Assembly: GCA_030167865.1 (NCBI GenBank)
Contig: JALAGF010006341.1
Coordinates: forward strand, 1-41,883
Length of the DNA stretch: 41,883 bases
Direction: 5' to 3'
Origin: Craspedostauros australis
Taxonomy: Eukaryota
The stretch's first letter is position 1. Each line of letters starts with the position of its first letter. Made by a program: the position numbers and the translations under genes. The notes beneath the pieces were generated by a model. That model did no database searches, was not told the DNA's origin, and was given only the letters and a program-made list of their open reading frames with translations. This document shows positions 11,767 through 32,575 of this stretch, one piece after another.

Positions 11767-12907
11767 CTTTGTGGACGAGTGCTTTTATTTGTAGCCGAGA
11801 GAGAGAGAGAGCACAGTGCTGTTGGAGTATTGCAATGTAATATATGCTTGGGTGGTTTCGGTTCTTTGCTGTGCTATTCCTCTGGGCTGGTTCAAGCGTG
11901 TGCTTTGCTCGTACTTGAAGTTTTTGCTCTGTGTTGTGAATGCGAGCAGAGTGCGGTGCCTTTGTTTGTTGTTACATGATTGTGTCGCACGATGGAGATG
12001 TCGGCAGTAGCAGGAGGCATCGAACGCCACCACGCTTCATTTTGATCTTCCGGTCGTTCCTTGCTGAACGGGAGGTTCGCAACGGCAACAAGCGACGGTC
12101 GAGCGCCATGGTCGGCTCGATTTTCCTTCCTTCTTCCTTCTCTCGCAGTGTTTGTGTCGCGTTTGTCGCAAACGATCGAAGTAGTCGTTGGGTCTTGAAA
12201 TCGTCTGTCCTCGTCAGTCGAATCGATCGTGCGGGAAAGAAATCCCAATGACTCATGTTGGGAGCCGTTGTGGCATTGTTGGCGACTAGGCTGCTTGCGT
12301 TAGACTTCTGTTTGTGAAAACTGCGAAAAAGGCCCATTCGCTTCTACCGCCGTGGTTTTTTCTGTTCTAGGCTGCGAACTGTTTTTGTGGTTGGTTCCAA
12401 CGGCAAATTGAGGGTTTGGCGCAATGCCCTCCACACTTCGACACATCCAACCGTGGGATGGAGGACTGCACCCAACGCACTCCCTCACTCACTCATTCGC
12501 TTGCTCGCTCGGTCCGGCTCTGTTCTGCGAGTACGCAACAATTCAGCTCACGTCATTCCATCGAGGCAGCGCAAACACGATCGGCATCACAAACAAGGAA
12601 CACGAACAGGAACGCTTGCGAGAGGATCTGTCGCATCGCATCGCGTCGCATTGCATTGTGTTGCGCTGTGTTGCGTTGTTGATCGATCAATCTGGCCAAG
12701 GTCCTCACTGCGACTGCTTCACCTGCCGCCGAAGAGCACTCGGAAGAAGATTGTTGGTGGTGTGGACAAGTGTCTGGTCGTCTCCACGTTGGGTCCATCG
12801 CGTCAACAGCACCATTTGGGGAGGAGAAGCATACACAGAAGTAGAGAGAAGCGAAGAAGGAAAGGAGCAATCGACACGAAATCTATTCTCCCGGTGCCGC
12901 TGCAGCC

Positions 12908-15900
12908 ATGGGCAATGAACCATCCACTCCCGTACGAGATCAGTGGGGCGGAAATGCCGGTGACGGTGCTGCATATTCTTCTGCCGGCGTCCATGGAGGT
13001 CGTGAAGGTCATGGGCATCATCAGCAGTCACAGCAACGGTCACATCAGCAGTCGCAGATGCAGATGCATCAACCACAGCGAGTTGATTCCAGAATTCCCC
13101 AAACTCGATCATCATCATCCTATAGAGATGAATCGATGGCATACGATTATGGGTACGATGCAACAGATGACGACGCGGAGGTGGATTGGGCTCCAGAAAA
13201 CGAAGAACCACGTCGTGCTGGTGGCAGACAACCACGCAGAAGAAGCCTGGTCAACTCATTGGAGAGGATAGAGAATGTTCATCAATTCAATGATAACGGA
13301 GGCAGGCACCATTCCACGGAGGAAAGGCTAGATCCTTTGTTCCGAGCAGCCGCGAGAGCACAGAATGCCAGGCAGACCAAACGCCAGAAACAGAAAGCAC
13401 GCAGAGCGCAGCACGCACCGGCAACCGACACCAGGGCCATGCAGGCTCAGCAGCGCAGCATCGACAATGAATGGAAGGCCTCGTTGCATCGTCTGGCGTC
13501 GACGACCGCATCAACGGCCAAGACCTTCTCGCACATTGCAGCACCTGTGTTGGTAGACGCTGGCAGTATTTTGGCGCAGTCCGCGAAAGACATTGGTGAA
13601 ACCTACCACAGTTCAACGGTCAGCTCCAATGCAAGGAACATGAATGGAAACAAGAGCAAGGCTGAACCAGGCGGGCCACGTGGAGCCGCGGATACCCGAG
13701 GCAGTGTCAGCTTGCCAGCTGCTGCCATTCCAAGGCGCGCTGGTGATGATGATTCCAAAATGCTGTCAGACAGCTTTGCCGACGATGAAACCTTGGTCTT
13801 GTACCCGTACAGCCCGGCATTCGCTCGCACGCCCTCACGTTCAGATGGTATCCAACAGTCCTTGTCTCCGGACGCATCCACCGTCCAGCCCCACAATGTA
13901 TTGCTTCGCAACGAAAGCGAATTCCAGCTACCATCATTGCAGAGCGAGTCCAGCGACATCAAGCTCCAGCCCAGAACCCAGCCACTGCCAACACCGGTGC
14001 TCAATCGGCGGCTGCATGTCACAACAGCAACTGATACCTTGTCGCAGACCCAGCTAGCTCCTCCCGCTCAGGTGTCCGACGATGAGACCGACGGCAGTAA
14101 GACCGGTGAGAATGAAGATCCGGTCGAAGCTGATGGCGATGTCAGTACCGATGACAGTAATGCCAAGAGCAAAGACGACAAAGTCGACGATGGCAATGCC
14201 GGTGAGGATGAAGATGAAGATGAAGAGGATGGACATACCAGTGTCACACCAAAGCATGAAAACGCAGTCAACCAACTCGTTGCAGACGATGAGAACCAAC
14301 CGAACAACAACGCAAACAGTGACAAGACTGACGAGTCTGAGAATGATACGGTTGGCACCGGTGAGGAACCGCAGACCGCCAAGCGTGGCGAAGACACGCG
14401 TGACAGCAACATCGATGCTGCGGGTGGCCAAGCTGAAGTCAACGTGCACGCATCAGACGAACCTGATCTTCAACCCGATGCTATAGCAACTGCAACTGAG
14501 GAAGTGGCTTCGAAGCCAGATGCCGATGTGACTGCAAAACCGCAGGTCAATTCGGATGAGGCAGGAATTGAGGCAGCCCCCAAACCAGATTCCGATACAA
14601 CCTCAGTTCTGAATCCGGAGAAAGCCTCTGCCAGCAAGGCCCACACCGCTTCGGGCGCGGATACGGGTGCAGAAGCAGAAGCAGAAGCAAAGGGAACGGC
14701 GGAAACCATTTCAGGAGCAATCGATGATTCAGACGAGAGCCCCGAGCCAAACGACAGTCCCATCCTTGACGAAAATGCGGGTGCGGACACAGGAGACGAA
14801 ACGGAGACCAACACCAAATCCGTTCCAAATGCAGATGCGGATTCCGATCCGGAGGGAGGCTTGGATACGAAGCCCAGATCTGGAGTAGATGGAGACGCCG
14901 GCACAGATCAGGTAGCGAAGACCGCAGCCGACAACAACTCCAGCTCAAAAACAGACGATGATGTAGGTGCCAATACAGATGCTACGGCACCGGAGAGTCC
15001 ACGGACCGAGGCAGAGGGGGAAGCAGATGATGAGGCAGAGGACGAGGCGAAGTCTGCTTCAACTTCAGATGTGAGTGCCAACCAAGAAGAGACCGCCGAC
15101 GCAAAGCCGGAGCCCACTCTCGGGTCCGACGCCGAACCGGACCAGGACGCGAAGACCGAAGTCAAGAACGAATTGGCCTTGGATGCAGATGCCAGCGAAC
15201 TTGCTGAGGCAACAGGTAGTCCGCAGGTCGAGGCAAATGACGAGGCCAAATCTGACTCAAAGCCGGATACAGACGCAAGCACTGATCCAGGCGAAACTTC
15301 CGAGGCAAAGCCAAGCAGCGGCCCAGACTCCGACATAGAACCAGACAAGGAGGTACGAGCAGAAGCAGACTCCAAATCTGATGCTGACACAAAACCTGCA
15401 CCAGACGAAGGCCCAGAGACGCAATCTCGCCCGGATGCAGCAGCAGACGAAGCTGAAGCCGCAGGGAAAAGGGCCATCTTTGAGCTAGAGGCAGGTGTAG
15501 ATGCAAATGCAGAGACGACGGAGGAAGGTACCGGTGCAAACATCGAACCGGCCAATGACTCTGTTGGAACATCGAGGTCTGGGCCAGATACTGGTGTAGA
15601 TGCAGCAGCAGACGGGAATTCCCGACCAGAAGCTGACGGTGACACAAAGTCTGATGCGGATACAAATGCTGAATCAGATGAAGGCTCTGAACCAATACTG
15701 GGCGGAGATACAGGCATCGAGAGACGGACCACTGCAGAAGTCGAGGCAGAAGACAAATCGACATCCGGTGCCAAGGCGGACGAAGATCCGGTTGAGCTCT
15801 CCGAGACACATCCAAGCTCTGGCGTAGACATCGGACCTGAGGCAATCGCTGAAACCAGTATCGAATCTGACTCAAATATACAAACTCCTCCAGGTGGGGA

Positions 15901-18900
15901 TGTCAAGACCAAGTCCAACTCTGTCCCGCACGAACACGGAGATGCGGACACAGCCATCGACACAAGCGCCCAGGAAGCGGGCAGTCTAAATACAGACGTA
16001 GACGCGATGACAATGACAGTGACAACAACAGAGGACACATCGAGCGCAACCATCGATCCAGTCAAAGATCCTGACACACAGCCCAGCGCTGACCAAGGCA
16101 AGGATGCAACTATTGACGCAGATATCCAATCAGACACTAAGGTGAACACCACGTCTGATTCAGATGCAGATGCTGATCCAAGTGAACACCCTGAGGTAGA
16201 CGCGCAGACGAACATAGGCGCTGAGGCAGAAATCAAGACTACCTCGGATGCAGATGTGGACACCGCTACCGGTGAAGCCTCCGAGGTCACGCCCAGCTCT
16301 GTTTCAGATGACGGCGAGGATGCAGCTGCGGCTGCGGCTGCGACCTCAGATACGGATACAAATGCCGAAGCAGAGGCCGAAACCGCACCCGATACAGATA
16401 CAAACACTCATCAAGGTGAATCCTCCGAGCCGAAGCTCAGCTCTCCACCAGACGAAGATACAGGGGCAGGTGCAGACAACAGCCAAGAAGTAGCGGCCGA
16501 AGAAGAACACTCCAATTCCGATTCTGGCTCGAAGCTGAAGCCAGATGAGGAGTCTGAGGCCAAATCCAGCTTTGCCCAAGATGAAGACGTGGACGTGACC
16601 ACGGATAAAGCAACATTAGCTAATATCGAAGCCGACGCTCAGATCGAACCACAAGACGAAACCGTGGCCAAGGATCGGGCCAACACTAAATCTGACGCAG
16701 ACGGGGATGCAGGTACCGAGACTCAAGGCACCGCAGAGATCGATGTCGAACAAGAGGCCGACACAGAGACCGAATCCGAACACAACTCGGATTCAGACAC
16801 TGATCCAGGCGAGGTTTCTGAGACGAAGTCCATCTGCAGTGCAAAGGTAGGCGCAGCAGCAGACGGAGAAATAAAAGCGGAAGAAGACTCCAAGTCGGTT
16901 TGTGATGCAAGGGTTGCATCAGATGAGGATTCCAAGACAAAACCCGATTCTGATATTGATGGAGGTGCAGGTGCAGGTGCAGGTGCCGGTGTCTCTGGTC
17001 CAGAGAAGGAGATAGACAAGAGCGTAGATGCCACATCGCCACCGGAGATCGAGGTTGACGCCAAGTCGAGCCCAGATGCAACTGTTGATTCAGGTGAGGA
17101 TACTCAGACGGAGGCCAAATCTGATTCAGATGAGGACGCGTCATCAGCAACAGAGACAGATGATGAGCTGGAATCGCATCCAGATGCAGATGCAGACTAT
17201 CAGGACGATGCGAAGCATGAGCCTCGCCCAGACGAGGATGCGGATGCGGATGTAGTTGTAAAGAACGCAGCAACGAACGCCGTAGTCATGAATGGCGAAT
17301 ATAAAGATGGAACGACGGCAGTTGCTTCAGATGCAGGTGCAATGAAGGAGCCAACGACAGATGCCATGAAGTCCGATGCAGATGCAAACTCTCAGGATGA
17401 TGCGGAGACTAAAGCTGGATCGGATGTGATGATGGAAACGCATCCGAGTTCGACTACGCAGGTGGAGAAAGAGGAAGATGCCAAAACCACTTCTGACGAA
17501 AGCGGAGGGCTTCATGACGAGCAATCATCCATGCCCGACGAAACCGCAAATATAGATGCGGGGACAAACGAAGAGCCACCAGCAGACGCAGAAACAACTG
17601 CGGATGCTACTTCGGGTGCGCCTGCCAAATCCGAGGTTGATGTGGCATCCAAACCTGATCCAGATGCGAACGCAGAAACCGAGGCGGCGAAACGGGCAGG
17701 GGCCTGTTCCGACCAAGGTGCAGAGGAAGCTGCAGTGGTCGATGGAGATGCGCAAACAGAGCCAAACAAAGAGACAGTAGATGAGGCAGTATCAGGTCCA
17801 TCTGTGGAAGGAGATAAAGATGGCGACGATGCGTACGAGAAAGGAGCTAAAGCCGAGCTCAGTTCAGATGCGAACGCACACACTCAGGCGGTCACAGAAG
17901 AGACGTCCGCGCTCGCCTCGGGCTCAACGGCAGAATCGGAAAGCAGAAGCACAACTGCACCGAACTCAGATGCAATAGAAGATGATGATGCAAAAGATCG
18001 GCTGGACGCAGAGCACGAGGCTGAAATTGCGTCCAAATCCATGCAAGATACAAGTCGTGAGGAAGGTGCAAACACCAAGCCCGGATCTGACGAAGATGCA
18101 CGATCCAAGGACGGAGCAAAGCTTGAACGCGGTTCTGATGCTCATGTTGATGCAAGTGCAGGCGCAAACGCCGACAACGACGCCGCCGCAGGCGAAGAGG
18201 CAAAGGAAACTGTCGATGCCAACACAGATTCGGAGATAGCTGCAGCCACAAGCATAGGATCTGAAGAGGATGCAAAATCCACGTCACTGGGTGATGAAGA
18301 TGGAAAACCACAGTCGCAAGGAAAAGCGAGGGACGACGCAGACACACACACAGCAGTAGAGGCAGACTCCAAAGTGGATTCAATTGCAAACGCAAATGCA
18401 GCTGCAGAACCTCAGGCAAAGGCGGAGGAGGGGACTGGGCCCGTCTCTGACGAGAATGAACACAAAACCAGAGCAGCAACGGCAAACGCAGACACCCAGT
18501 CCCACTCCGACTCCGGTCAAGAAGAAGACTCACAATCGGGATCAGATTCAGAAACAGAATCTCTGCATGGAGAAGCAAAGGTCTCAAACAACCACTTGGC
18601 ATCCCAGAATGGCCATGGCAACGGACATGGTCAGAAACCATCCAACCAAGGATCGGTGAGTAGCAACGCCGACTTTACGGATTCATCAGATTTCATATTC
18701 CTCGATACCAACGATGGTCTTCGAACTCCAAACTTCCGTCGAGTGTCCATCCTCTCCAACGCCAACACACTGGAGTCGGACTTCGACATGCTCGCATTCT
18801 CAGCACCGAGGCCCACACGTGTGACTGATGCCACACCGCAACATTTGCGCTTCAGCCCCAGTGTCCTCGAAACTCCAATGCCATCAACTATCAGGACCAA

Positions 18901-21900
18901 GCGAAGGGACTCCGTGGTGCGATGGTCGCAGTTGCCCTCAGTTGGGAAACTGTTCGAGGCCGATCCCGAGGATCTCGTTGAGGGATTCGATGATCTGCAG
19001 GCATCGTTGGAGTTTCAAATGCGCCATTCCCTTCGCGCCTTGAGATCTCATCAAAAGCTCATGAGATCTTCATCCACTGATGCAGCTTACTCCGATCCTG
19101 GCACTCCCACGCGACAAGGTCAATCCCAGCAAGAGAAGCAGCACCAGGAAGGATCGTTGCTGTCCAGATCGCGTGCCGTGCTGGGAAATGATCTCTTGGA
19201 AGCATCAAGCTCAATCGCGCAGAGTATTGCGGCACAGTGGAATCGTTTCAGCGAAGCAATCAAACAGGATGATCGCGAAGGAAATGCGGTTGGTGAAGAT
19301 GATGTGTTTGCCTCGCCCCCTGACGTGTTTGACGCAGAAACAGTCCTGTCCATGGGATCCAGCGATGATTCAATCAAGACATCTCCAGAAGTGCCGGTGA
19401 CCGATCTCGCTCTTGATCCTTCGACGAATACAGCCGCCAAACATGACCAGATGACGACATCAACTGCACTCGAGACAGACGACTCCGTTTCAAGCATGTC
19501 ATGGGACATGGTGCCCGAACGCCATCATCTCGCTGCAGAAGACCTCGTTGATGTGGAATTGAAGATCACCGTGAAGGGTGCAGCTCAGCAGGCTGAGGCG
19601 TCTCAATCAAGCTCTTGCGAGATCAGCGACGTGATTCGGGTGAGCGAAACCAGCAGTGCTGTCAGTAAGGAAGGCAAACCGTCTGCCAACGAAGAGTCTC
19701 CCGAAGACGGCCACGAGGACACCGGAGTTGCTCAATCCACAGGCGACAAGGACGACAGTAACGAGAAGAAGGAAGATGGCGACATTGAAGGTCAAGCCGA
19801 AGCTCAAGCCACGGACGAATCCGCCAATCGCGCTCCAGCAAAGCCAAATGGTGAGCGCAGGGACGGTGCGAAAGCTGCATGTGGTGACGCCGATGAAGGC
19901 AAAGAAGCTGACAGTATGAATCACGAGAACCAAAACGCTGATTCCGGCGACAACTCGATTGAAAAGAAAGATACCGACGGCAGTCCGACTGGAAGTGATG
20001 ATGCACCAAAGGTGCAAAATGGAAAGACGAGTGCAATCCCACAAGACAAGTCCTTGTCGGAGCCAACGACACCAGCCGTTGAAACAACTGTCGGTTGGGA
20101 CAAGGATGCAGAAGCCAAGCACCCCAACATCCCAGAGACTGAGGAGATGACAGACGTGTTCGCTGGCAATGTTTTGGACACATCCTTGCTCGCACTGACT
20201 TCGCTGGACGACGTGGACTTCCTGAATAAGAAGCGCCCCTCCAGTGCTGCGTTGCGCAAAGATCTGACCGGCTTGGCTCGCATCAGATGGGACCAGCTCG
20301 TTGCCAATTGGATGCATGCCGAAACATGGAAGGCGATCAATGCAGTCTCTGCAGATGGCAAGGCTGGGAGCGAGCAACAAGGAGATGGAGATCCAGCCGA
20401 AGGCGAGAACGCTTCGTCAAGCAATTCTTCCACCGTGTCCACAGTGCAAACAGTGATAAACGAGCAGTGCAACCTGCTTTTGTCGACGACGAAAGCAGGT
20501 CCTTCACAGGTGCTACAAGCAACGGCATCACTGCCGAGATCTGTGCCTCAGCCGAGTATGTTCCGACCGATTGAATCGATGGAACAGTACTTGCCTCTGA
20601 GGACCTTGACAGATATTGGTCCCTTGGGAATGCCATCCATCGCCCCTTCGTCATCAGAATCTTCACCAGAGCTTTTGTCGCACGAAATTCACGGAGACGA
20701 GGATGGAAAGGGCGACGCCAAACATGAGGTCACGCAGTTATTGGAGCGGGCCAAGCAGCAATTGCCAGACTTTGAGTCATTGCTCCGAAGCATTGTTCGT
20801 TTTTCATCGCAGAACGAATCATCGAAGACCTATTTCGAGCAAACCGCGACGTCTTGCACAGTTGGACTAAAGAGTGAAGCATCCATCCGAAGCAAGGCTG
20901 ACCGCAAGTATGGTGGTGATGCCAAGCAGGTGAAGGATATTCTGCGAGGTCAGATAGTTTTCCCCGATCAACTATCCATGATATGTGCGCTTGTCTACCT
21001 CAGGCGTCGCACAAGAGCACGGAAGATGAAGCGATCAAAGTCCTCGGCAAGTGCAAGTGGAAGTGGAAAGATGAAGTCAGATGGAATGACGGATGGCAAG
21101 CACAGCGAAAAGCAAGTTGCTCCCATCGAGATTGTACGCATGAAGAATCTTTTCAGCGACCAATCAGTAGATGAGAATAGAGCGTTGCACGGTGCGCTGG
21201 CAACTGGGTATCGGCACGTGCTGCTAACGGTACGGCTGGAGGGTGGCCTGTTGGCAGAAATCCAGTGCCAACTGCGTGCGCTGTATGAAGTTCTTGGCGA
21301 AGAGGGGTATGCTTTGCACCGGAAGATAGAAGGCGTCGAAATCAGAAAAGGTGACAAGCCCAACCCCTCGTCCCAACAGCTGTTCTCGCTGGATGCAAAG
21401 ACTTTGATCCAATCCTTCCTTCCAAACGACGACAGCACGAATCGCGAAGAGCAATCCACACGAAGACAGCAGGAAGGGAGTGGGGCAGGTATGGCTGCAT
21501 CCACGCAAGAGAACTGCAAGCCTGCCGTGAGTCCGTTCGCCGGTGGTGGCATCGCAGCAGCTGCAGCAATGGCAGCAGCAAAGAAGGGTCCGCCAGATTC
21601 AAAGGGGAGCAGCAAACCCAAGGCGAGTCCGTTCGCTGGCGGTGGGATCGCAGCAGCGGCTGCAATGGCGGCAGCCAAAAAGTCGAACAATGGAGACTCT
21701 TCTGATGGTGGTAACAAGCCAAAGGTGAGTCCGTTCGCTGGTGGAGGTATCGCAGCTGCTGCGGCAATGGCCGCGGCGAAGAAGTCGAAGTCTGAGATGC
21801 CAACCGCAGAGACTAAGCCAAAGGCGAGTCCGTTCGCTGGCGGTGGGATCGCAGCAGCAGCGGCAATGGCCGCAGCAAAGAAAGCCAAACCGGAATCAGA

Positions 21901-24900
21901 GAAAAGCAAACCAAAGCCGAGCCCTTTTGCTGGTGGTGGTATTGCAGCTGCTGCCGCAATGGCTGCAGCCAAAAAGTCAAAGCCCAAGACATCTGGTGGA
22001 GACGAGAAAGCAAAGGCGAATCCGTTCGCCGGCGGTGGGATCGCAGCAGCAGCGGCAATGGCTGCAGCAAAGAAGTCGAAGTCTGATACTCCAAACGCAG
22101 ATGAGAAGCCAAAAGTGAGTCCATTTGCCGGCGGTGGGATCGCAGCAGCGGCTGCAATGGCGGCAGCGAAGAAAAACAAGCCCCTACCAGAGCCTGAAAA
22201 GCCAAAGGCGAACCCTTTTGCTGGTGGTGGTATTGCAGCTGCTGCCGCAATGGCCGCAGCCAAGAAGTCAAAGCCAAAGACATCTGGTGGAGACAAGAGA
22301 CCAAAGGTGAATCCGTTCGCGGGAGGAGGAATTGCCGCGGCGGCGGCGATGGCTGCAGCGAAGAAATCAAAATCTGATGCGCCAAACGCAGTGAGTCAGC
22401 CAAAGGCGAGTCCTTTTGCGGGAGGAGGGATTGCCGCGGCAGCGGCGATGGCAGCAGCCAAGAAGAGCAAGCCTCCATCAGAGGCTGACAAACCAAAGGC
22501 AAATCCGTTTGCAGGCGGAGGTATCGCAGCAGCCGCAGCCATGGCGGCAGCCAAGAAGAGCAAAGGAACAGCCAAGTCTCCCGGAGAGGATAAGCCAAAA
22601 GCTAGCCCGTTCGCAGGTGGCGGAATTGCCGCTGCGGCAGCCATGGCAGCAGCCAAGAAGAGCAAGGCATCAGGTAAACCATCCAGTGACGCAAAACCGG
22701 CACCAAGCCCATTTGCAGGAGGTGGCATCGCAGCAGCAGCAGCCATGGCGGCAGCCAAGAAAGGTAAGCCATTGGGGGAATCATCAACCGATAGGAGGCC
22801 TGGTGGAAGTCCATTTGCAGGTGGTGGGATTGCAGCGGCCGCTGCCATGGCCGCAGCGAAGAAGGCCCCCTCGGCGGAAGTGAGACAAAATGGAAGCAAA
22901 CAAGCGTTTAATCCTCTTGCTGGAGGTGGGATTGCCGCAGCTGCAGCCATGGCTGCTTCCAACAAGCAAGCCCAAACAGGCGCCAGCACATCAAACGTCA
23001 AAACGACGACAATCGCGATGGCCAAAGATAGTGAAACCCAAGGTGGGTCTCGTGGAAACTCTGACTTTACTGCGAATGAACTATTCGAATCGATGATCAA
23101 CATTGCCATCGGCCACTGCATTGAGAACCCGCGTGATGTTTCGTCGTTCTTGTGCCTTGCGTCACTCGTCGAATGCCAGACCAACAGCAACCAGAGCTCG
23201 CCATCAAGTGAGAGCACGAAACAAGCGCATAGCAAGGAAGGCGACGACGAAAGCAAGAGCGACGGGCAGCCGTTGAACTTCGCCAACCTTTTATTGCAGC
23301 AGTGTCTCGATATTTCCAACCAAGCATCCTCCAATGGCATGCTTGGTTGGCTCGAGTATGGCAGCAGCAACTCATTGGAGAGAAATCCTGAGCTTGGTCT
23401 CCAAATCGCGCACAAGCTGGCAGCGAACTTTGCCAGCGCCGGGCAGCATCGCACCGCCCTTGACATCCTGTCAGGGCTTCGCACGCATTGTGGTTTGAGG
23501 TTCCCTGTCGTGCATCCAATCGCAGTCAGCATCACAATCGATCTGTCCATTTGCGCTGCGCAAGCAGGAGATACAATCGTCGGTCAGAAACTTATCAACC
23601 AGGTCAACCGCGACATCTCTGCCTATCTGTCACAGAAGGAGTCATCGCATTTCGACCTGCTGCGAAAGTACGTCGCCTTCCGCAAAGCATTCGCAAGCGG
23701 GTGCTTCCTGGAGACCCTGACGGATCGCATCGCCGAGCTCAAGAGCTTCGCTGCGCTGATGGAGGCGCACCTCGGGCGCGGCTTTTTGTTGACTGTGGGA
23801 GACACGAACCCAGCAGCAATCATCAACAAGGCGATGGTGGGCAACTGCTGGATGGTCGTTGCGAATTGTGTCGCAGCCGGTGAGAGATCGCCTGTCGAGC
23901 TGATCCATGGCCTCAACACGGCAAGACAGAATACGGGACACCCGACCTTGCGTAGGAGGGAGTCAGCTTCCGCGTCGTCACGTGAGGCGGGAGTGTACTG
24001 GAACAAGGCGTACGAGCTGTATCAAAGCGCTTTCCGGAGCTACCTTGTGTATGAGCGTGGCACGATGACAAGCCAGGCAGCAGTGTTTGCATACAACGTC
24101 GCGCGTTGCCTCAGAGAGCTGGATAAGCGGAAGGAGGCCATTCATCTCTTGAACATGGTGGTGAGCAAGTTGGAAACATCGGCTGGCTCGGCGAGTCATG
24201 TTGGCAAACGAGGACACAGAGACCGCAACGATGGCGGCCGTGAACTTCGTCGCGGATGTGATCATTCTTCTGTCAATCCTGATGGTTCCAAAGAAGGCAG
24301 GCACGCGCAGCCTCAAATCATCGGTGTGCATGGAATGCATGGAGCCCATGGAGTTCATGGAACCGCCGCGCTGATGCCAAGCGGGAACGAAGAAGTCACA
24401 GCCTTGTGCCTGTGGATGATGGCGGTTCTTTCAGTGGAGGACTGTCCTGATGAAAGAGGCCGTATCCGTGCTTTGAGTTTGCTCCATGGAGCATCAACGG
24501 CTGTCAAGCAAGCAATGCACCAACTCCAATCTCCAGATGGGCATGATGGCGACGCAACCGGCCAGCCCAGCATCGGAGATAATAGGCGCAAGCTGCAGCT
24601 TCTCTACAAGCGCATCCAGGACGAAGCGCGCTCTCTGTACGAGCCGTTGGATGTTCTGGAGGCCAACTTCGCTGGTGTTTCCGGCTCCGATGGTTCGAAC
24701 GATGGCAGATCAGCCGGCCACCCCGGAACGCTGTACGATGAAGCAATCGATCCCACCCCGCTCGATTGGAGGGACGTGCTCACGCCTATGCGTCGAAAGC
24801 GTTGGGAGGACAAGCAGCGATCTCACCATTTCATTTCACCACGGAAACGCAACGCATCCGACAGAAGCAGCACCCTCCGCAACGGAAGGTTGGAAAGACG

Positions 24901-24967
24901 GACAAGTAGCACCAGACTTGTGGGTCCGCACAGACAGTCATCATCGGAACTGTCAGTGGCGATCTAG
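12908..24967 (+). CDS. Giant 4019-aa protein: N-myristoylation motif, acidic disordered tract, RelA/SpoT-like nucleotidyltransferase domain, 15x Ala/Gly peptide repeat, TPR-like C-terminus
   Basis: 12-kb stop-free frame starting MGNEPS. Motifs KSEASIRSK, KDILRGQIVF, VRMKNLF, GYRHVLLTV and AEIQCQL lie at ~20860-21330. The repeat array varies only synonymously in its core. The helical C-terminus has TPR-like segments. Short in-frame introns cannot be excluded. Confidence 0.85.
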   Translation: MGNEPSTPVRDQWGGNAGDGAAYSSAGVHGGREGHGHHQQSQQRSHQQSQMQMHQPQRVDSRIPQTRSSSSYRDESMAYDYGYDATDDDAEVDWAPENEEPRRAGGRQPRRRSLVNSLERIENVHQFNDNGGRHHSTEERLDPLFRAAARAQNARQTKRQKQKARRAQHAPATDTRAMQAQQRSIDNEWKASLHRLASTTASTAKTFSHIAAPVLVDAGSILAQSAKDIGETYHSSTVSSNARNMNGNKSKAEPGGPRGAADTRGSVSLPAAAIPRRAGDDDSKMLSDSFADDETLVLYPYSPAFARTPSRSDGIQQSLSPDASTVQPHNVLLRNESEFQLPSLQSESSDIKLQPRTQPLPTPVLNRRLHVTTATDTLSQTQLAPPAQVSDDETDGSKTGENEDPVEADGDVSTDDSNAKSKDDKVDDGNAGEDEDEDEEDGHTSVTPKHENAVNQLVADDENQPNNNANSDKTDESENDTVGTGEEPQTAKRGEDTRDSNIDAAGGQAEVNVHASDEPDLQPDAIATATEEVASKPDADVTAKPQVNSDEAGIEAAPKPDSDTTSVLNPEKASASKAHTASGADTGAEAEAEAKGTAETISGAIDDSDESPEPNDSPILDENAGADTGDETETNTKSVPNADADSDPEGGLDTKPRSGVDGDAGTDQVAKTAADNNSSSKTDDDVGANTDATAPESPRTEAEGEADDEAEDEAKSASTSDVSANQEETADAKPEPTLGSDAEPDQDAKTEVKNELALDADASELAEATGSPQVEANDEAKSDSKPDTDASTDPGETSEAKPSSGPDSDIEPDKEVRAEADSKSDADTKPAPDEGPETQSRPDAAADEAEAAGKRAIFELEAGVDANAETTEEGTGANIEPANDSVGTSRSGPDTGVDAAADGNSRPEADGDTKSDADTNAESDEGSEPILGGDTGIERRTTAEVEAEDKSTSGAKADEDPVELSETHPSSGVDIGPEAIAETSIESDSNIQTPPGGDVKTKSNSVPHEHGDADTAIDTSAQEAGSLNTDVDAMTMTVTTTEDTSSATIDPVKDPDTQPSADQGKDATIDADIQSDTKVNTTSDSDADADPSEHPEVDAQTNIGAEAEIKTTSDADVDTATGEASEVTPSSVSDDGEDAAAAAAATSDTDTNAEAEAETAPDTDTNTHQGESSEPKLSSPPDEDTGAGADNSQEVAAEEEHSNSDSGSKLKPDEESEAKSSFAQDEDVDVTTDKATLANIEADAQIEPQDETVAKDRANTKSDADGDAGTETQGTAEIDVEQEADTETESEHNSDSDTDPGEVSETKSICSAKVGAAADGEIKAEEDSKSVCDARVASDEDSKTKPDSDIDGGAGAGAGAGVSGPEKEIDKSVDATSPPEIEVDAKSSPDATVDSGEDTQTEAKSDSDEDASSATETDDELESHPDADADYQDDAKHEPRPDEDADADVVVKNAATNAVVMNGEYKDGTTAVASDAGAMKEPTTDAMKSDADANSQDDAETKAGSDVMMETHPSSTTQVEKEEDAKTTSDESGGLHDEQSSMPDETANIDAGTNEEPPADAETTADATSGAPAKSEVDVASKPDPDANAETEAAKRAGACSDQGAEEAAVVDGDAQTEPNKETVDEAVSGPSVEGDKDGDDAYEKGAKAELSSDANAHTQAVTEETSALASGSTAESESRSTTAPNSDAIEDDDAKDRLDAEHEAEIASKSMQDTSREEGANTKPGSDEDARSKDGAKLERGSDAHVDASAGANADNDAAAGEEAKETVDANTDSEIAAATSIGSEEDAKSTSLGDEDGKPQSQGKARDDADTHTAVEADSKVDSIANANAAAEPQAKAEEGTGPVSDENEHKTRAATANADTQSHSDSGQEEDSQSGSDSETESLHGEAKVSNNHLASQNGHGNGHGQKPSNQGSVSSNADFTDSSDFIFLDTNDGLRTPNFRRVSILSNANTLESDFDMLAFSAPRPTRVTDATPQHLRFSPSVLETPMPSTIRTKRRDSVVRWSQLPSVGKLFEADPEDLVEGFDDLQASLEFQMRHSLRALRSHQKLMRSSSTDAAYSDPGTPTRQGQSQQEKQHQEGSLLSRSRAVLGNDLLEASSSIAQSIAAQWNRFSEAIKQDDREGNAVGEDDVFASPPDVFDAETVLSMGSSDDSIKTSPEVPVTDLALDPSTNTAAKHDQMTTSTALETDDSVSSMSWDMVPERHHLAAEDLVDVELKITVKGAAQQAEASQSSSCEISDVIRVSETSSAVSKEGKPSANEESPEDGHEDTGVAQSTGDKDDSNEKKEDGDIEGQAEAQATDESANRAPAKPNGERRDGAKAACGDADEGKEADSMNHENQNADSGDNSIEKKDTDGSPTGSDDAPKVQNGKTSAIPQDKSLSEPTTPAVETTVGWDKDAEAKHPNIPETEEMTDVFAGNVLDTSLLALTSLDDVDFLNKKRPSSAALRKDLTGLARIRWDQLVANWMHAETWKAINAVSADGKAGSEQQGDGDPAEGENASSSNSSTVSTVQTVINEQCNLLLSTTKAGPSQVLQATASLPRSVPQPSMFRPIESMEQYLPLRTLTDIGPLGMPSIAPSSSESSPELLSHEIHGDEDGKGDAKHEVTQLLERAKQQLPDFESLLRSIVRFSSQNESSKTYFEQTATSCTVGLKSEASIRSKADRKYGGDAKQVKDILRGQIVFPDQLSMICALVYLRRRTRARKMKRSKSSASASGSGKMKSDGMTDGKHSEKQVAPIEIVRMKNLFSDQSVDENRALHGALATGYRHVLLTVRLEGGLLAEIQCQLRALYEVLGEEGYALHRKIEGVEIRKGDKPNPSSQQLFSLDAKTLIQSFLPNDDSTNREEQSTRRQQEGSGAGMAASTQENCKPAVSPFAGGGIAAAAAMAAAKKGPPDSKGSSKPKASPFAGGGIAAAAAMAAAKKSNNGDSSDGGNKPKVSPFAGGGIAAAAAMAAAKKSKSEMPTAETKPKASPFAGGGIAAAAAMAAAKKAKPESEKSKPKPSPFAGGGIAAAAAMAAAKKSKPKTSGGDEKAKANPFAGGGIAAAAAMAAAKKSKSDTPNADEKPKVSPFAGGGIAAAAAMAAAKKNKPLPEPEKPKANPFAGGGIAAAAAMAAAKKSKPKTSGGDKRPKVNPFAGGGIAAAAAMAAAKKSKSDAPNAVSQPKASPFAGGGIAAAAAMAAAKKSKPPSEADKPKANPFAGGGIAAAAAMAAAKKSKGTAKSPGEDKPKASPFAGGGIAAAAAMAAAKKSKASGKPSSDAKPAPSPFAGGGIAAAAAMAAAKKGKPLGESSTDRRPGGSPFAGGGIAAAAAMAAAKKAPSAEVRQNGSKQAFNPLAGGGIAAAAAMAASNKQAQTGASTSNVKTTTIAMAKDSETQGGSRGNSDFTANELFESMINIAIGHCIENPRDVSSFLCLASLVECQTNSNQSSPSSESTKQAHSKEGDDESKSDGQPLNFANLLLQQCLDISNQASSNGMLGWLEYGSSNSLERNPELGLQIAHKLAANFASAGQHRTALDILSGLRTHCGLRFPVVHPIAVSITIDLSICAAQAGDTIVGQKLINQVNRDISAYLSQKESSHFDLLRKYVAFRKAFASGCFLETLTDRIAELKSFAALMEAHLGRGFLLTVGDTNPAAIINKAMVGNCWMVVANCVAAGERSPVELIHGLNTARQNTGHPTLRRRESASASSREAGVYWNKAYELYQSAFRSYLVYERGTMTSQAAVFAYNVARCLRELDKRKEAIHLLNMVVSKLETSAGSASHVGKRGHRDRNDGGRELRRGCDHSSVNPDGSKEGRHAQPQIIGVHGMHGAHGVHGTAALMPSGNEEVTALCLWMMAVLSVEDCPDERGRIRALSLLHGASTAVKQAMHQLQSPDGHDGDATGQPSIGDNRRKLQLLYKRIQDEARSLYEPLDVLEANFAGVSGSDGSNDGRSAGHPGTLYDEAIDPTPLDWRDVLTPMRRKRWEDKQRSHHFISPRKRNASDRSSTLRNGRLERRTSSTRLVGPHRQSSSELSVAI
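21518..22966 (+). repeat. Coding tandem repeat: 15 units (93-102 bp period) encoding PFAGGGIAAAAAMAAAKK plus a variable K/S/P-rich linker
   Basis: Core starts at 21533, 21629, 21731, 21830, 21923, 22022, 22121, 22214, 22313, 22412, 22505, 22607, 22709, 22811 and 22913 (last degenerate: PLAGGGIAAAAAMAASNK). Confidence 0.95.
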
Positions 24968-24987
24968 AGAGAGAGAGAGAGAGAGAG
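24966..24987. repeat. (AG)11 microsatellite overlapping the TAG stop of the giant ORF
   Basis: Read directly: ...ATC TAG AGAGAG... Confidence 0.9.
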
Positions 24988-27541
24988 GGCAAAGTGGACT
25001 CGTAGACAGGAACATGATACAGAGAGACAGTGTCGCTATCATCTACACGATTGATTGTCATAGAGTACTATACCATACATGGAGCAAATGTAGAGTCGCA
25101 TAGAATAGAGTAATGGAGCATATCAGACCATGCTCAGCTGGTAGCATGACATTGTCGTTGCCCAATTCTCATTCTTCCTTCCGTTTCAATGAGCTGTTGT
25201 GGCCACAGTCATGAATGGGGTCGACAAGGGGATCAATCACTCCACCGCTTCACCAAGGAGGACGTATGTAGAATATGAGTGAAACATGGAAGCACATCCA
25301 AAAGTGTGGACAACATGGTCAACACACTCGCACATACATGCAGATAGTAGGCACTGATTATACTACACATGATTGCGCATTGGCCCCAGGTTACGTGAAT
25401 GGTATGAGTACAATACACATGATGACCTGGTTTCTCTTGAGTTGGTGGGAGTCGTCTTAAGTTGGAAAGGCCATCCCCATTTCTCCGAGCGCGATGCTCA
25501 TAGCAACTCCACAACCATCCGTCGCATCCACTCATGCAGCAGCACATGACGTGGTGAAGACAGGACATATCGTTGCTCCTCTTCCTCTCAACATAAAGTA
25601 TCGTATGCTACGATTCTTCCACATCCATACTCGCGCTCTTTGTCTTCGAATGCTCAGATGCCTTCACAAAATGTGACGATCGAACGAGCGGAGATGCGTT
25701 GGCTTTGCACATGAGTCCTACGGACTTCTGCGAGGCGAGAATTGTGGCGGCATCTCGTTGACGAAAACGCTGTGCAGATTTGTGGAACAGGTGCACGTGT
25801 TGGTTTCTCATTTTGTGGCGTCCACAAAATTGGCAGCACGATTCGGATCGTGTTGGCGCGTCATGGCTTGCAATGTCGCATTGTGACATTGTATCATTTC
25901 AATATATTAATGCGTGAATTTAGTAATATTCATTTGAATTTCGATACCGATTTAAGAGTAGTACGCGAGCAGAGCGTTGAAATTTCTTCAGGGGAAGCCG
26001 ACTCCGCCAGCCAACCTGTACAACGGTGAAGTTGCATATAAGTGAGCGTGCTTTTTGTGTGCTTGGCGGTTACGACAGCCGACGGTTTTTCCTCCCCGCG
26101 AGAAGGGAATCGTTGTTGTTGTCGCGTGCGGAGCAGATGGTGGTGCCAAGCAGCGCGGCACGATGCGGCGTGCGTGGCTCGACACGCGATGACACGCAGG
26201 AGGAACCACGCGAGAGCAACGCAACACTCCAGATTTGCAAACTGCGCACGCAACTTCCAGCGTTGCTTTCTTGGTTGTTTGATTTGTTGGTTTGTTGACT
26301 GGTGGGCCGTCCCTTCCTCTGCTTTGGTGGACATCAACCAGAGAACGAAATCCGTTCCTGTCGACGATTGATTGCTGACTGCTGACTGGTGGTCGCTCTC
26401 CTTCGCCCTCTTGTCTCCTTGTTGCCATTGTGCGTCTTTGGGTGGGAAGTTGCTTTCTTCTGGTGGGAATCTTGACAACCAACAACACAACAACAACAAC
26501 AAAGAAGAGCAGTAGAAGCAGCGGCAGCGGCAACAAGGAAGAGCCTCAATCCGTCCAATCCGTCAAGACAGAACACAGCAACCGTGAAAAGCAGCTCAAG
26601 TGCGACCCGCAAGCATCAGTTCAAGTGAGCCACCAAGACCAGAGACAGCGACAAGTCAAGTCAAGTCAAGAAGGGAGCATTGTGAGGAAGGCACCACTTC
26701 ATTGTCAGCGCCAAGACCACACAACATCGACGTGGCCATCAGAAGAACGGCGCATAGCTATCAGCATCATCTCATCACCGTGGAACATCGAATATCGAAC
26801 TTTGGTTCCCGAGAGTTGAGTGCTGAGTGTTGAGAGTCGAAGTGTTGACACGTTTCTACACGTAGCATCGCTGGATTGACGGAGCCCTTTCGACAAGTGG
26901 ATCGTCATCAACAAACAACGCATCGCGCAAAGCTGCTGCATCGAGTTACGTTGTGCTTGAGGCTCGCCCTTGCAGCCACAGCTGACTGGTTGGTACGGTC
27001 AATAATAATACCACACAACACCATCGTGGATTGTGGAATCATCGCTTGTTGTACACGAACAGGGACGCTTCGCAGAGGAGGAATTCCCATACTGGCGAAA
27101 AGGTACCCTTCGCACCCAAGAGCACACTCAGTCACCCTTGTCTGGTTGTTCCAGCGAAAACGGAACTGGTGTCGGAGAAGGACAAAAGACCGCGGTGACA
27201 AGATTCACAGGTACTTGCGTGCACAAGTAGGAATACTCGCCGCCATCACGCAGAGAGAAGAGCAGCGGGGCACAGCGGCAATTAACGCCAGTCAGCAGTG
27301 AACTCGAAATTGTCCACAGCGCGATTTATCCCACACACACACCACCAAGGACAGAGAGACAGACACAGCGCCATCGACTCCAGCGAAACAGCGAAGAACA
27401 GCAGGCCCCTGCGAATTGCGTGTGACAGCTCCGCTGGAAAGCACACGCATCTCAGGCACCACACGCATCACACGCTTCAACAGCGACAGCGAGATCAGCA
27501 CACAACCGCACGTCGCTTTCCGGCGCAACAGGACTTGCCCA

Positions 27542-30493: not shown

Positions 30494-31693
30494 CTACATC
30501 ATGATGCAGCATCCGCAATCCGTGGAGTTGTCCGGCTTGTCTTGTATGCGGTGGCGCTTCTTCCTCCTCTTCTTCTTTTTCTTCGTCTTCTTCTTGCCCT
30601 CCTTCTTCGCCTGAGTCGCTTTCTCCTTTTCCCCAGCAAAGTCAAATCCTTCTTGCTCTGGTTCCTTCTCTTCCGCCTCCGGTTTGGGCTGCTGCTCTGC
30701 AACGTGGGCGTCCCACTTCTCTTGGCGCTTCTTATTCATCGCCGCTGCAGCCTTCTGGAATTCCGGCACTTCATCTGATGGCTGTTGCTGCTGACCATTG
30801 GTGCCACCCTGCATGGGCGGGGCCGGAACGAAGTTGCGGACGGGCGTTTTGGCTTTGCCATCCTGCTTGGGAACAAAGCTCTTGACTGGTGAGAATTTGG
30901 AGGTGGTCTGGGTCGTTACTCTGGCCTTCACGGGAACAGGCGATGGCTGCGCCGTGCCCATGGCCGTGATGGAGGGGGCATTGGATCTATCGACCGCGAC
31001 ACGCTGCTTCGATACAGGCGAATGTATGACATCCGCGATGGTGGAACGCGGTGGCGCCACCTCACCTGCCAGGACGGAATCCTGCACATTCTGCGGCACG
31101 TTGGCCATGGCCATCTGTCCCATGAGGGCAGGACGCGGAATGCCGATTTTGAACATGTCGCGGAAGGGACCGGCGATCTTCTCGTCTTGCAGCGACAGCT
31201 GTGACACCTTGTCGTTGGAAGCACCTCCGGATGCATTGTTGCCGAAGCGGCCCCCGCGCGAGCTGGATGATCCGTCGACGTTGGCTCCTGCAGCAGACGG
31301 CGGCGGAACCGTCGGGGCCTTCTTCCGTCCCATGATGATATCCTGCAGCTCAGCGGACACGCCTGCCGCCTTCATCTCCCTTTCCACGGCCTGCTTGGGG
31401 AGACCGACCTTCAATTTCTGACCGAACTTCTTGACGATGGCCTCATCTGCCGCACTCAGCGCTGACTGAGCCTGCTGTGGTGATACCTGCTCTTCTCCCG
31501 CACGAGATGCCGCACGACCGCTGCCATTCGCAGGGCTTGAGGGGCTGGACGCGAAGACGGCATCCTGCACGTGCGGGGGGATGCCATCCGTCGCCATCTT
31601 ATGACGGATGGCACCCTCCGGTAACCCACGCTTCAGCAGCGCTTGGTACGTTTGCACCCATCCTTGCTCCTTTGCGGACAGCGCTGGCGCCAT
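30494..31693 (-). CDS. Protein with three ~42-aa CCDC53/WASH-like helical repeats and a polybasic + CaaX (CGCCIMM) C-terminus, 399 aa
   Basis: Repeats LSAKEQGWVQTYQALLKRGLPEGAIRHKMATDGIPPHVQDAV, LSAADEAIVKKFGQKLKVGLPKQAVEREMKAAGVSAELQDII and LSLQDEKIAGPFRDMFKIGIPRPALMGQMAMANVPQNVQDSV. Ends KKKTKKKKKRRKKRHR...CGCCIMM*. First ATG is 31693 (the track start at 31708 is GTG). Confidence 0.8.
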   Translation of the reverse strand: MAPALSAKEQGWVQTYQALLKRGLPEGAIRHKMATDGIPPHVQDAVFASSPSSPANGSGRAASRAGEEQVSPQQAQSALSAADEAIVKKFGQKLKVGLPKQAVEREMKAAGVSAELQDIIMGRKKAPTVPPPSAAGANVDGSSSSRGGRFGNNASGGASNDKVSQLSLQDEKIAGPFRDMFKIGIPRPALMGQMAMANVPQNVQDSVLAGEVAPPRSTIADVIHSPVSKQRVAVDRSNAPSITAMGTAQPSPVPVKARVTTQTTSKFSPVKSFVPKQDGKAKTPVRNFVPAPPMQGGTNGQQQQPSDEVPEFQKAAAAMNKKRQEKWDAHVAEQQPKPEAEEKEPEQEGFDFAGEKEKATQAKKEGKKKTKKKKKRRKKRHRIQDKPDNSTDCGCCIMM

Positions 31694-32575
31694 GACTCTC
31701 TCTTCCACGAGCTGCGGGCTACGGATTGCGGGTTACGGGTGACAGGCTTGGGGACGACGGATACGACAATGTCTTGGTATTGGTGTGTTTTCCTCTCGAT
31801 CAGTGTTGGTCGCTCCACTCCTTCTCTCCAGAGAGAGTCTCGCTCTCTCTACTCGTACTAGTATGGTGGGACTGCAGCTGTTAATGCAACAGTTGAAGTT
31901 AAACTTGCAGTGTATAATATAGAATATTAGGTATTACAGGCAGTGTATTCTATTCCATCCAATGAGGTATGCTCGGCATTCCCCTTGTCTCTTTGTATTG
32001 CTTGAGTGGAATGGTCTGCTCTCTCCATCATCCACTTCGCCTCCACCAACAACCACCCTCGGCTTTTCTCTCCACCAAGGCGACATCATTTGGGGTGTCA
32101 CAAACAATCAGCAGAGGGTCATTTCCGTCCATGTCGCCGGTATCCAACATCTTCGTTTCGAATTCTGTTGGTCCACGGATGACGCCAAACGGGATAGAAG
32201 CACGATTTATCCGCAATCGTGATTCAAGTTGGTCTTGGTTTCACATCGCGACACGAATCAATCGATTCTTGAAATGGTCCACGAATCATGCCAAAGAAGG
32301 TGCGAGACCGAACCAAATCACATCACAGAAAAGAGACGCGAACGAAAGAGAACGCAAAGGACGAAAGATCGTCTTGGTCACTGCCACCAACCTCTCCCTC
32401 TGTGCGTCGGTGTGTTGAGCCGGTGATGGCTGCTTTCTCTCCCTTGCAAACACAACCGACACACAAAAATCAAAGACACCAGAAAGCAAACGCACCAACC
32501 CACGAAACAGCCCCAAGCAGCAGCAGAAGCAGCAACACATCCACCACAGATCAAGACCAAGAGCTCGAGACGATC

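Follow-up and report, generated by a model that had tools for sequence, protein, structure and literature searches.

The enzymes nearest to the protein considered here are the RelA/SpoT-type synthetases SAS1/RelQ, RelP, CapRel and Tas1/Apk1, and the nearest relatives of solved structure are synthetases of (p)ppGpp or (p)ppApp, or enzymes that pyrophosphorylate tRNA. In the available parts of the two papers concerned, RelA/SpoT-type enzymes of eukaryotes are otherwise plastid (p)ppGpp enzymes (PMC6881373) or annotated effector domains of fungal NLRs (PMC4986451). The diatom representatives PtRSH1, PtRSH4a and PtRSH4b were found by BLAST and are described, in the text available, as having strong homology to bacterial synthetase domains, hydrolase domains and plastid-targeting peptides (PMC6881373). 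The NLR-like proteins of fungi are described in the accessible text as carrying an N-terminal RelA_SpoT effector, a central NOD and C-terminal TPR, ANK or WD repeats (PMC4986451). A further setting for this fold is found in a 4019-residue protein of the diatom Craspedostauros australis, encoded on contig JALAGF010006341.1 of assembly GCA_030167865.1, of which the whole analysed stretch of 41,883 nucleotides is referred to below as the window. The fold is a known one in a new setting, namely an architecture of a eukaryote, here found only in diatoms, in which the enzyme-like domain lies far inside a giant protein between a long acidic spacer and an array of peptide repeats that leads into a TPR-type domain.

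The gene is the longest among the 61 open reading frames of at least 150 amino acids in the window. An in-frame TAG at 12842-12844 lies 22 codons before the ATG at 12908 and no ATG intervenes, so that the latter is the earliest possible start. By our own arithmetic the probability of 4019 stop-free codons is about e^-190 and the frame is therefore not a chance one; it is a real diatom gene of 4019 residues, probably a single one free of introns. The single 12-kb frame without a stop that the first-pass annotation had described thus translates as claimed, and the modules which it listed (an MGNEPST start, the acidic tract, an enzyme-like domain, 15 repeats and a helical C-terminus) are all present. 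They are arranged as follows, with relatives of the protein given by P numbers and P0006 being the Nitzschia inconspicua protein described further below:

12908..24967, forward strand: the open reading frame (P0001), unbroken, 4019 amino acids, coordinates including the stop codon.
12908..12931, forward strand: the N-terminal motif MGNEPSTP, which fits the N-myristoylation pattern.
13469..13627, forward strand: conserved N-terminal helical island, NEWKxSLxRLAxTxASTAKTxxHxxAPVLxDA, residues ~188-240, matched to P0006 by BLAST with an E value of 4e-10.
14108..18607, forward strand: acidic low-complexity tract, residues 401-1900, presumably disordered.
19988..20707, forward strand: conserved region ahead of the enzyme-like domain, residues ~2361-2600, to which 21-46 relatives align and which is collinear with P0006.
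20714..21352, forward strand: predicted RelA/SpoT-fold (SAS/Tas1-like) nucleotidyl- or pyrophosphotransferase domain, residues ~2603-2815.
21530..22966, forward strand: array of 15 repeats, residues 2875-3353, each [S/N]PFAGGGIAAAAAMAAAKK with linkers of 12-15 residues rich in K, P and S.
23072..24640, forward strand: predicted all-helical TPR-type solenoid, residues ~3389-3911, with a disordered insert at residues ~3762-3822.
24641..24964, forward strand: basic, Ser-rich tail of low predicted confidence (pLDDT <50) with a conserved TPMRxxRxW island taken from the consensus of the C-terminal alignment.

Curated models do not recognise the enzyme-like domain. Pfam returned nothing for the whole protein at E values up to 1, and for four pieces of the protein at E values up to 10 it gave only weak TPR_12 and LMBR1 rows and nothing for the enzyme domain; the LMBR1 row (E 1.6) was discarded. 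The curated models of RelA/SpoT homologues (the gathering score of Pfam PF04607, and TIGR00691) are likewise not reached by the window protein. The sole row of a phmmer search with the 280-residue enzyme piece (P0002, window 20651-21490) against PDB, an hnRNP chain at E 0.58, was also discarded. Word-index searches found one match in the 2210-7034-residue class and none in the 154-490-residue class, a near-blank outcome that reflects limits of sensitivity, because an exhaustive single-sequence phmmer search of the same piece against 1.84 billion representatives then gave 151 proteins at E values up to 1e-3, 119 of them at up to 1e-10, all of these matches being cluster representatives at 50% identity. 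One match in the tail of this search is from a marine bacterium. From the tail 16 matches, bacterial where a source was named, were scanned with Pfam; two pass the RelA_SpoT cut-off of 27 bits (P0138 at 33.6 and P0143 at 30.2) and five match below it, among them P0153, which also contains an eCIS core domain.

A profile built from 44 sequences of the family matches Tas1 (6ox6) with an E value of 8.6e-5 over only 36 residues (Tas1 280-315), a second stretch not being significant, and reaches an exported Streptomyces alarmone synthetase only with a non-significant E value of 0.42. The AlphaFold2 model of the domain, built on the same 44-sequence alignment, has a mean predicted local distance difference test score (pLDDT) of 74.9 and a predicted template modelling score (pTM) of 0.66. 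Foldseek places SAS1 on top of the PDB entries that resemble this model (E 1.3e-5; 42 matches at E values up to 1e-3), and the best 26 of the 42 matches are all of the RelA/SpoT homologue type (SAS1, RelP, Tas1, RelSeq, Rel and RelA). In VIA-align the highest scores go to CapRel (Z 13.1), SAS2 (13.1), SAS1 (13.0, root mean square deviation 3.3 over 147 residues) and Tas1 (12.1), with generic Pol-beta-type nucleotidyltransferases at only Z ~8. Comparison of the diatom profile with a bacterial one by hhalign gave a probability of 99.96, which was given no weight because six of the 13 bacterial sequences are also in the diatom profile. Taken together the Foldseek and VIA-align matches, the Tas1 profile match and the transitive Pfam RelA_SpoT match identify the modelled fold as that of a RelA/SpoT synthetase domain, and on the same three grounds the RelA/SpoT-like enzyme of the first-pass annotation is upheld.

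When diatom and bacterial members are aligned with MAFFT, four motifs recur in the same order, L-K-x3-[RS]-x3-K-x3-[DK]-Y-G-G-D-x5-D-x2-R-x2-I-x-F, V-R-x-K-[DN]-[RL]-F, G-Y-R-[DH] and [AV]-E-[ILV]-Q. The family-conserved residues of the window protein are K2655, K2663, K2667, Y2668, G2670, D2677, R2680, R2744, K2746, G2767-Y2768-R2769-H2770, E2784 and Q2786. None of the 44 sequences departs from D2677 or K2746, and nine more columns are at least 90% conserved, including K2655, K2663, Y2668, R2680, R2744 and the G-Y-R of 2767-2769. E2784 is present in the window protein, in all 15 relatives of the alignment that reach past the site and in each of the 13 aligned bacterial relatives. D2677 and E2784 are taken to be the Mg-binding, catalytic pair equivalent to D264 and E323 of RelSeq, a mapping made by motif order and not from a printed structural alignment. 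In SaEAS, a relative, the change D121A is inactivating according to the accessible text (PMC12691689). Between the third helix and the next strand the window protein has a loop of ~37 residues (residues ~2703-2739), basic and Ser-rich (RRRTRARKMKRSKSSASASGSGKMKSDG...), which is far longer than the matching stretch in its relatives.

The likeness to SAS1/RelQ, RelP, CapRel and Tas1/Apk1 thus lies in the predicted fold (Z 12-13 over 131-174 aligned residues) and in the motif order K...K...D..R, R.K, GYR, E.Q, with Tas1 as the nearest solved relative by sequence. Unlike these, the diatom protein is eukaryotic, its domain is embedded in 4019 residues and falls below the Pfam RelA_SpoT model, it carries GYxLH and GYRH motifs, and its start, judged by eye and not with a predictor, is not that of a hydrophobic secretory signal. 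Unlike in toxic small alarmone synthetases, an immunity or antitoxin partner is not evident. Six diatom terms looked for are absent from the Apk1/Tas1 homologue lists that supplement a 2025 survey, the available text of which does not mention eukaryotes (PMC12691689), and the main text of a preprint on the classification of RelA/SpoT homologues contains neither 'diatom' nor 'stramenopil' (10.1101/575399). With PtRSH1, PtRSH4a and PtRSH4b the protein shares a RelA/SpoT synthetase fold and a nuclear gene in a diatom, but as far as those proteins are described in the text available the present family has none of their features, that is no hydrolase domain, no evident plastid-targeting peptide and no strong homology to the synthetase domains of bacteria. 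The family is not mentioned in that text, in which the words 'TPR' and 'cytosol' occur 0 times (PMC6881373). Literature searches on diatom RelA/SpoT and ppGpp, and on toxic small alarmone synthetases in eukaryotes with TPR, found no description of the family. In line with the first-pass annotation, which recognised no named family, the Pfam, NCBIfam and PADLOC scans gave none that spans the entire protein.

Like the diatom protein, the fungal NLRs are cytosolic proteins of eukaryotes in which a RelA/SpoT-type enzyme domain is joined to a sensor domain made of repeats. They differ from it, as far as their published description was available, in that the diatom enzyme is internal and that its lipid-anchor motif, acidic spacer and peptide repeats are without a fungal counterpart. 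No NACHT or NB-ARC match to Pfam was obtained anywhere in the 4019 residues or in pieces of them, and the interval between enzyme and TPR-type domain is filled by the 15 repeats. AKAP12/gravin and MARCKS offer an analogy, not a homology, to the remaining parts. They begin with MG and consist of a long acidic disordered chain with basic motifs; to our knowledge they have no enzyme domain of their own, whereas the diatom protein adds one.

The repeat array was detected by Tandem Repeats Finder at 21529-22558 with a period of 99. It comprises exactly the 15 cores that had been counted at the outset, its linkers end in KPK[AV] and its net charge is +49. Fourteen of the 15 cores contain the identical 18-residue PFAGGGIAAAAAMAAAKK. 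Over the 105 pairs of cores, the codon differences are 1063 synonymous against 92 non-synonymous, and the latter lie almost all at the S/N of position 1 and in the last, divergent copy. The DNA has diverged and the peptide has been kept, which is the mark of selection on the repeat peptide and not of recent duplication or gene conversion; the peptide is under strong selection. With synonymous change saturated, the array shows with unusual clarity that a short linear motif is under selection.

The wording of the motif changes from relative to relative. The repeat unit is PPPGGIAALAAQAALKKS in P0164 and P0166, eleven GGGGGIAAMAAQAALKKA repeats lie between enzyme and TPR in P0006, P0177 contains five copies of PPPFLGGGGIAAAAAAAAQARNK at residues 16-232, P0010 has four RLGLMDQIKA units, and P0051 and P0055 have no repeats. 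The P0177 units reach Pfam DUF6732 with 38.7 bits (cut-off 27), so this uncharacterised Pfam family shares the Gly/Ala motif of the diatom repeat; a literature search found no papers on DUF6732. For the window array itself Pfam gave noise rows only (E >0.3), a profile of 14 window units matched no PDB sequence at E values up to 10, and the ESM Atlas returned no usable match. A complex prediction for the C-terminal domain (the first 535 residues of P0003) with two repeats (residues 2870-2945) scored 0.00 with the alignment unused and is evidence neither way.

The C-terminal domain is modelled by AlphaFold2 as all-helical with 19 helices (pLDDT 69.9, pTM 0.68), with disorder predicted at residues ~3762-3822 and from residue ~3916 to the end. 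Among 50 Foldseek matches at E values up to 1e-3, Ctr9, the TPR domain of OGT, LGN, subunits of the APC/C and KLC1 are on top. In the window protein itself TPR_12 matches weakly at residues 3699-3751 (E 0.033; 14.8 bits against a cut-off of 30.1, thus below the curated score). Ten of 13 close relatives have a TPR-type Pfam match at the homologous place and two of these exceed the TPR_12 cut-off; the scores above cut-off at that place are 35.3 (P0011), 40.6 (P0089), 37.1 (P0164) and 33.5 (P0166). When the last 639 residues were used as the query, 24 relatives were found with E values from 2e-62 to 2e-22, of which 20 carry a precomputed PF13424 annotation. The domains are 24-33% identical, and their alignment has 20 columns that are invariant in 27 sequences, a hint that a core or a surface for binding is conserved. 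By its model and the Pfam matches of its relatives the domain is of the TPR type, as the first-pass annotation had proposed for the helical C-terminus, and no particular TPR family can be named for it.

At the other end of the protein, the first residues conform to the PROSITE-type pattern for N-myristoylation, G-{EDRKHPFYW}-x(2)-[STAGCN]-{P}. Twenty-six of 132 relatives (P0006-P0137) fit this pattern, as does the window protein. The MGxxxS start noted in the first-pass annotation is indeed conserved, since 28 of the 132 begin with MGN, of which 25 read MGNE (mostly MGNExS) and three have another residue after MGN; a further six have MG followed by another residue. Alignment of 30 MGN sequences (the window protein, P0156 and the 28 relatives) shows positions 1-3 invariant, E at position 4 in 27 and S at position 6 in 27. 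Past about residue 8 the similarity is gone, and Cys is absent from the first 20 residues of all 30. Conservation confined to some eight residues therefore speaks for a short co-translational signal and not for a folded domain, and it is likely, judging from the sequence, that the protein is N-myristoylated.

Beyond this motif the N-terminal island aligns in six relatives, and its motif is present in P0006, P0023, P0031 and P0048. The acidic tract that follows contains 21-35 Asp and Glu per 100 residues, has a net charge of -304 and only five aromatic residues in 1500. No exact internal repeats were found in it, and no relatives align to residues 400-2320 in SEG-filtered BLAST. An (AGGTGC)n microsatellite of 4.8 copies at 16963-16991 lies within the tract and codes for a GAGAGAGAG run. 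The conserved region at residues ~2361-2600 gave no Pfam match. In the 28 MGN relatives, between 646 and 2441 residues separate the start from the enzyme domain. By these comparisons the spacer is retained in the family with neither its length nor its sequence conserved. The long reverse-strand open reading frames within the acidic tract would be artefacts of a coding sequence rich in GAx and GCx codons.

The family counts at least 130 relatives of the 4019-residue protein. In the first search the only named full-length match was IV203_013437 of N. inconspicua (P0006, 2389 residues), which is collinear with the window protein by BLAST over the N-terminal island (4e-10), the pre-enzyme and enzyme regions (3e-45) and the C-terminal domain (5e-52). 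Cluster names, looked up for 30 proteins, gave as sources a JGI Psemu1 model (JGI Psemu1 being presumably Pseudo-nitzschia multiseries), a Bacillariaceae metagenome-assembled genome, Entomoneis paludosa, Seminavis robusta, Nitzschia sp. Nitz4, Mayamaea pseudoterrestris and Fistulifera solaris. With N. inconspicua of the first search, all eight source species named in the look-ups are raphid pennate diatoms, and the four that were checked taxonomically all belong to the Bacillariophyceae/Bacillariophycidae. The Seminavis relative is annotated as an 'expressed unknown protein' of 3079-3080 residues, and no papers mentioning Sro61_g035140 were found in the literature search.

Linkage of the modules was followed in 137 BLAST-matched relatives. 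The enzyme and C-terminal domains occur together in 20 of them, four of which (P0009, P0010, P0011 and P0066) also begin with MGN. The linkage of the domains, across spacers that vary in length, is conserved, as the first-pass annotation had called for. In 104 of the 137 the open reading frame stops within 45 residues of the enzyme match. In P0010 (residues ~2585-2608) and P0051 (residues ~2383-2411) the conserved Ala and the EIQ that normally follows it are split precisely at their junction by an insertion of 21-29 residues. From this insertion and from the frames that end at the same point we infer that in many species an intron precedes EIQ and breaks gene calls based on open reading frames; the window gene is without it, and at the insertion site of its relatives the MAFFT alignment shows no insertion in the window protein. 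P0033 with P0167, and P0070 with P0181, which lie on contigs of equal size (52518 and 24411), would be the halves of split genes, and these pairs support the intron before EIQ.

On the evidence above the protein is probably an N-myristoylated, disordered-tether protein that bears a Tas1/SAS-like pyrophosphotransferase beside a possibly regulatory TPR domain. One intronless gene would give rise to a giant cytosolic protein of a family seen here in raphid pennate diatoms, and its conserved MGNExS N-terminus would most likely receive an N-myristoyl lipid. The long acidic disordered spacer could then serve as a flexible tether or a polyanionic brush. Because the invariant Asp and Glu of the family are kept, the RelA/SpoT-fold domain is probably an active Mg-dependent transferase, which may move pyrophosphate from ATP to a nucleotide or to the 3' end of an RNA. 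The selected Gly/Ala-rich basic repeats would most likely be docking sites for a partner, and the TPR-type solenoid may bind a ligand or protein and so regulate or target the enzyme. The membrane-anchored tether with an enzyme and sensor module that the first-pass annotation had envisaged is compatible with all of these results. A large diatom family in which a Tas1/SAS-like domain with an intact catalytic pair sits on a probably myristoylated tether beside a TPR domain would alter the picture of RelA/SpoT-type enzymes in eukaryotes: it would point to nucleotide-alarmone or RNA-pyrophosphorylation chemistry in the cytosol of an important group of marine primary producers, and would probably be an instance of a eukaryote putting the fold of a bacterial toxin to new use.

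Several observations weigh against this proposal. Even at lenient thresholds the enzyme piece has no Pfam, NCBIfam (E up to 1) or PADLOC match. Three motifs of the bacterial members are altered in the diatoms (GYRD to GYRH, KDRF to KNLF and GHxLYE to GYxLH), and instead of Arg a Leu, Ile or Val (VGLK in the window protein) stands ahead of the first conserved Lys. An arginine at this position, R241 in RelSeq and R46 in SAS1, helps to hold ATP. R46 of SAS1 is mentioned in the accessible text of the diatom study (PMC6881373). In 87 of the 132 relatives the start Met precedes a residue that is not Gly, and 11 lack a Met start, many of the non-MG relatives being fragments or frame calls broken at introns. 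The N. inconspicua model starts with MNNDD, so Gly2, the retention of which in orthologues the first-pass annotation had made a test of its reading, is not kept there; it is kept in many other relatives. Near the N-terminus of the window protein there is no second membrane signal, neither a Cys nor a basic cluster, and the lipid itself is a prediction from the protein's first residues. Compared with TPR proteins of solved structure, the C-terminal model reaches TM-scores of only 0.12-0.20. Possible transcript cover extends over the last 800 bases of the reading frame at most and derives from the one public run that contains part of the stretch, the kind of which is guessed:

24166..25113, forward strand: contig of 948 bases from public run X1 (kind guessed to be RNA), 0 differences and no joints.

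The contig continues 146 bases beyond the stop codon and, as the RNA nature of the run is a guess, at best hints at expression of the 3' end.

With the Arg missing and the motifs changed, the enzyme-like domain could be inactive or altered in substrate. The diatom-specific motif residues are themselves conserved among the diatom members, for which reason an active enzyme is preferred to a pseudoenzyme: an active enzyme with an altered acceptor is narrowly favoured on these alignments, and a pseudoenzyme is given a minor though real chance. The corresponding alternative for the whole protein is a pseudoenzyme scaffold, in which the RelA/SpoT-like domain is kept for binding and the protein is a myristoylated, acidic, disordered scaffold in the manner of AKAP12/MARCKS, its repeats and TPR domain serving to gather partners at a membrane. 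It would explain the three departures GHxLYE to GYxLH, GYRD to GYRH and the lost Arg before the first conserved Lys, as well as the failure to match curated models of RelA/SpoT homologues, and it suits a protein that consists mostly of disordered spacer and docking-type modules. It is unlikely, in that the Asp, the Glu and most basic residues of the nucleotide face are invariant or nearly so in more than 40 diverged sequences, as is typical of retained catalysis, and strict conservation of the changed motifs in diatoms fits an altered specificity better than decay. The same fold invites an immune interpretation, according to which a molecule of viral or bacterial origin, once sensed by the TPR domain, would lead to the release of a toxic Tas1/CapRel-like activity, either depletion of ATP into (p)ppApp or pyrophosphorylation of tRNA, by analogy with CapRel and the fungal NLRs. 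CapRel (Z 13.1) and Tas1 (Z 12.1) are among the best structural matches, Tas1 is the top sequence match among solved structures, the eCIS core fusion of the bacterial relative P0153 is of a kind usually met with toxins, the family is large and evolves quickly (151 representatives at 50% identity, C-terminal domains at 24-33%), and a precedent exists in the fungal NLRs with their RelA_SpoT effector and TPR/ANK/WD sensors, as described in the part of that paper available (PMC4986451). The stretch from enzyme to TPR contains no NACHT, NB-ARC or other switch domain, however, and the 20 TPR columns invariant in 27 sequences point to a conserved and not to a diversifying ligand site, so that an immune sensor-effector is considered rather doubtful.

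The repeats and the gene model each allow a further explanation. WH2 motifs follow the consensus LLxxIxxGxxLKK[VT], and the repeats might be degenerate WH2-like G-actin motifs with proline-rich linkers in a cytoskeletal linker that connects membrane and actin, for example in the raphe gliding apparatus. The PPPGGIAALAAQAALKKS and GGGGGIAAMAAQAALKKA units of relatives indeed place hydrophobic residues 9 and 6 positions ahead of LKK, the RLGLMDQIKA units of P0010 and the raphid pennate origin of every named species are in keeping with the idea. The window units, however, carry Ala at both key hydrophobic positions and AKK for LKK; Pfam detects no WH2 at E values up to 10 in the window array, P0006 or five repeat-rich relatives, and the window-repeat profile finds no PDB sequence at the same threshold. 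Moreover the repeat motif varies by species though actin is highly conserved, some relatives are repeat-less and the repeats of one match DUF6732 instead, all of which makes an actin-binding linker improbable. That the frame is an artefact of annotation, joining at least two genes or hiding in-frame introns, is the least credible of the alternatives and highly improbable. It draws on the stretch 12908-24165, which is without transcript evidence, and on the intron before EIQ in relatives, with 104 of 137 frames ending within 45 residues of the enzyme match and P0010 and P0051 reading through the insertion. Against it stand the absence of an insertion at the EIQ site of the window gene, the same order of modules in gene models and open reading frames of several species, and the MGNExS start, which always lies upstream of the enzyme domain.

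The remainder of the window contains ordinary eukaryotic genes, of which the following were delimited:

5745-8741, forward strand: protein of 998 amino acids with strong TPR_12 repeats (146 bits), 4 kb upstream of the 4019-residue gene.
30494-31708, reverse strand: homologue of CCDC53, a WASH complex subunit (PF10152, 31.5 bits against a cut-off of 24.6).
34711-37086 and 37190-38695, reverse strand: pair of open reading frames with AAA_23/SMC_N matches, of the Rad50-type ATPase.

The TPR_12 protein was considered as kin of the C-terminal domain of the 4019-residue protein and rejected (best E 0.53). The CCDC53 match represents a component of an actin-regulatory complex in a diatom. The two Rad50-type frames, separated by a gap of ~100 bases, are most likely a single intron-bearing gene. 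Further neighbours encode a zinc-type dehydrogenase, a BET-domain protein and a RabGAP-TBC protein, the reading frame of the last terminating within its own domain. In a partial check of the earlier claim that five neighbouring genes have introns, the RabGAP-TBC and Rad50-like genes fit the presence of introns.

For the N-myristoylated tether protein with its Tas1/SAS-like domain a speculative origin and role may be suggested, namely that raphid pennates domesticated a bacterial Tas1-like toxin domain as a lipid-anchored, TPR-gated cytosolic enzyme that makes (p)ppApp or (p)ppGpp, or pyrophosphorylates RNA ends, outside the plastid, with the 15 repeats providing multivalent docking to a membrane-proximal structure. 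This is considered unlikely. If true, it would amount to a eukaryotic cytosolic alarmone or abortive-defence pathway.

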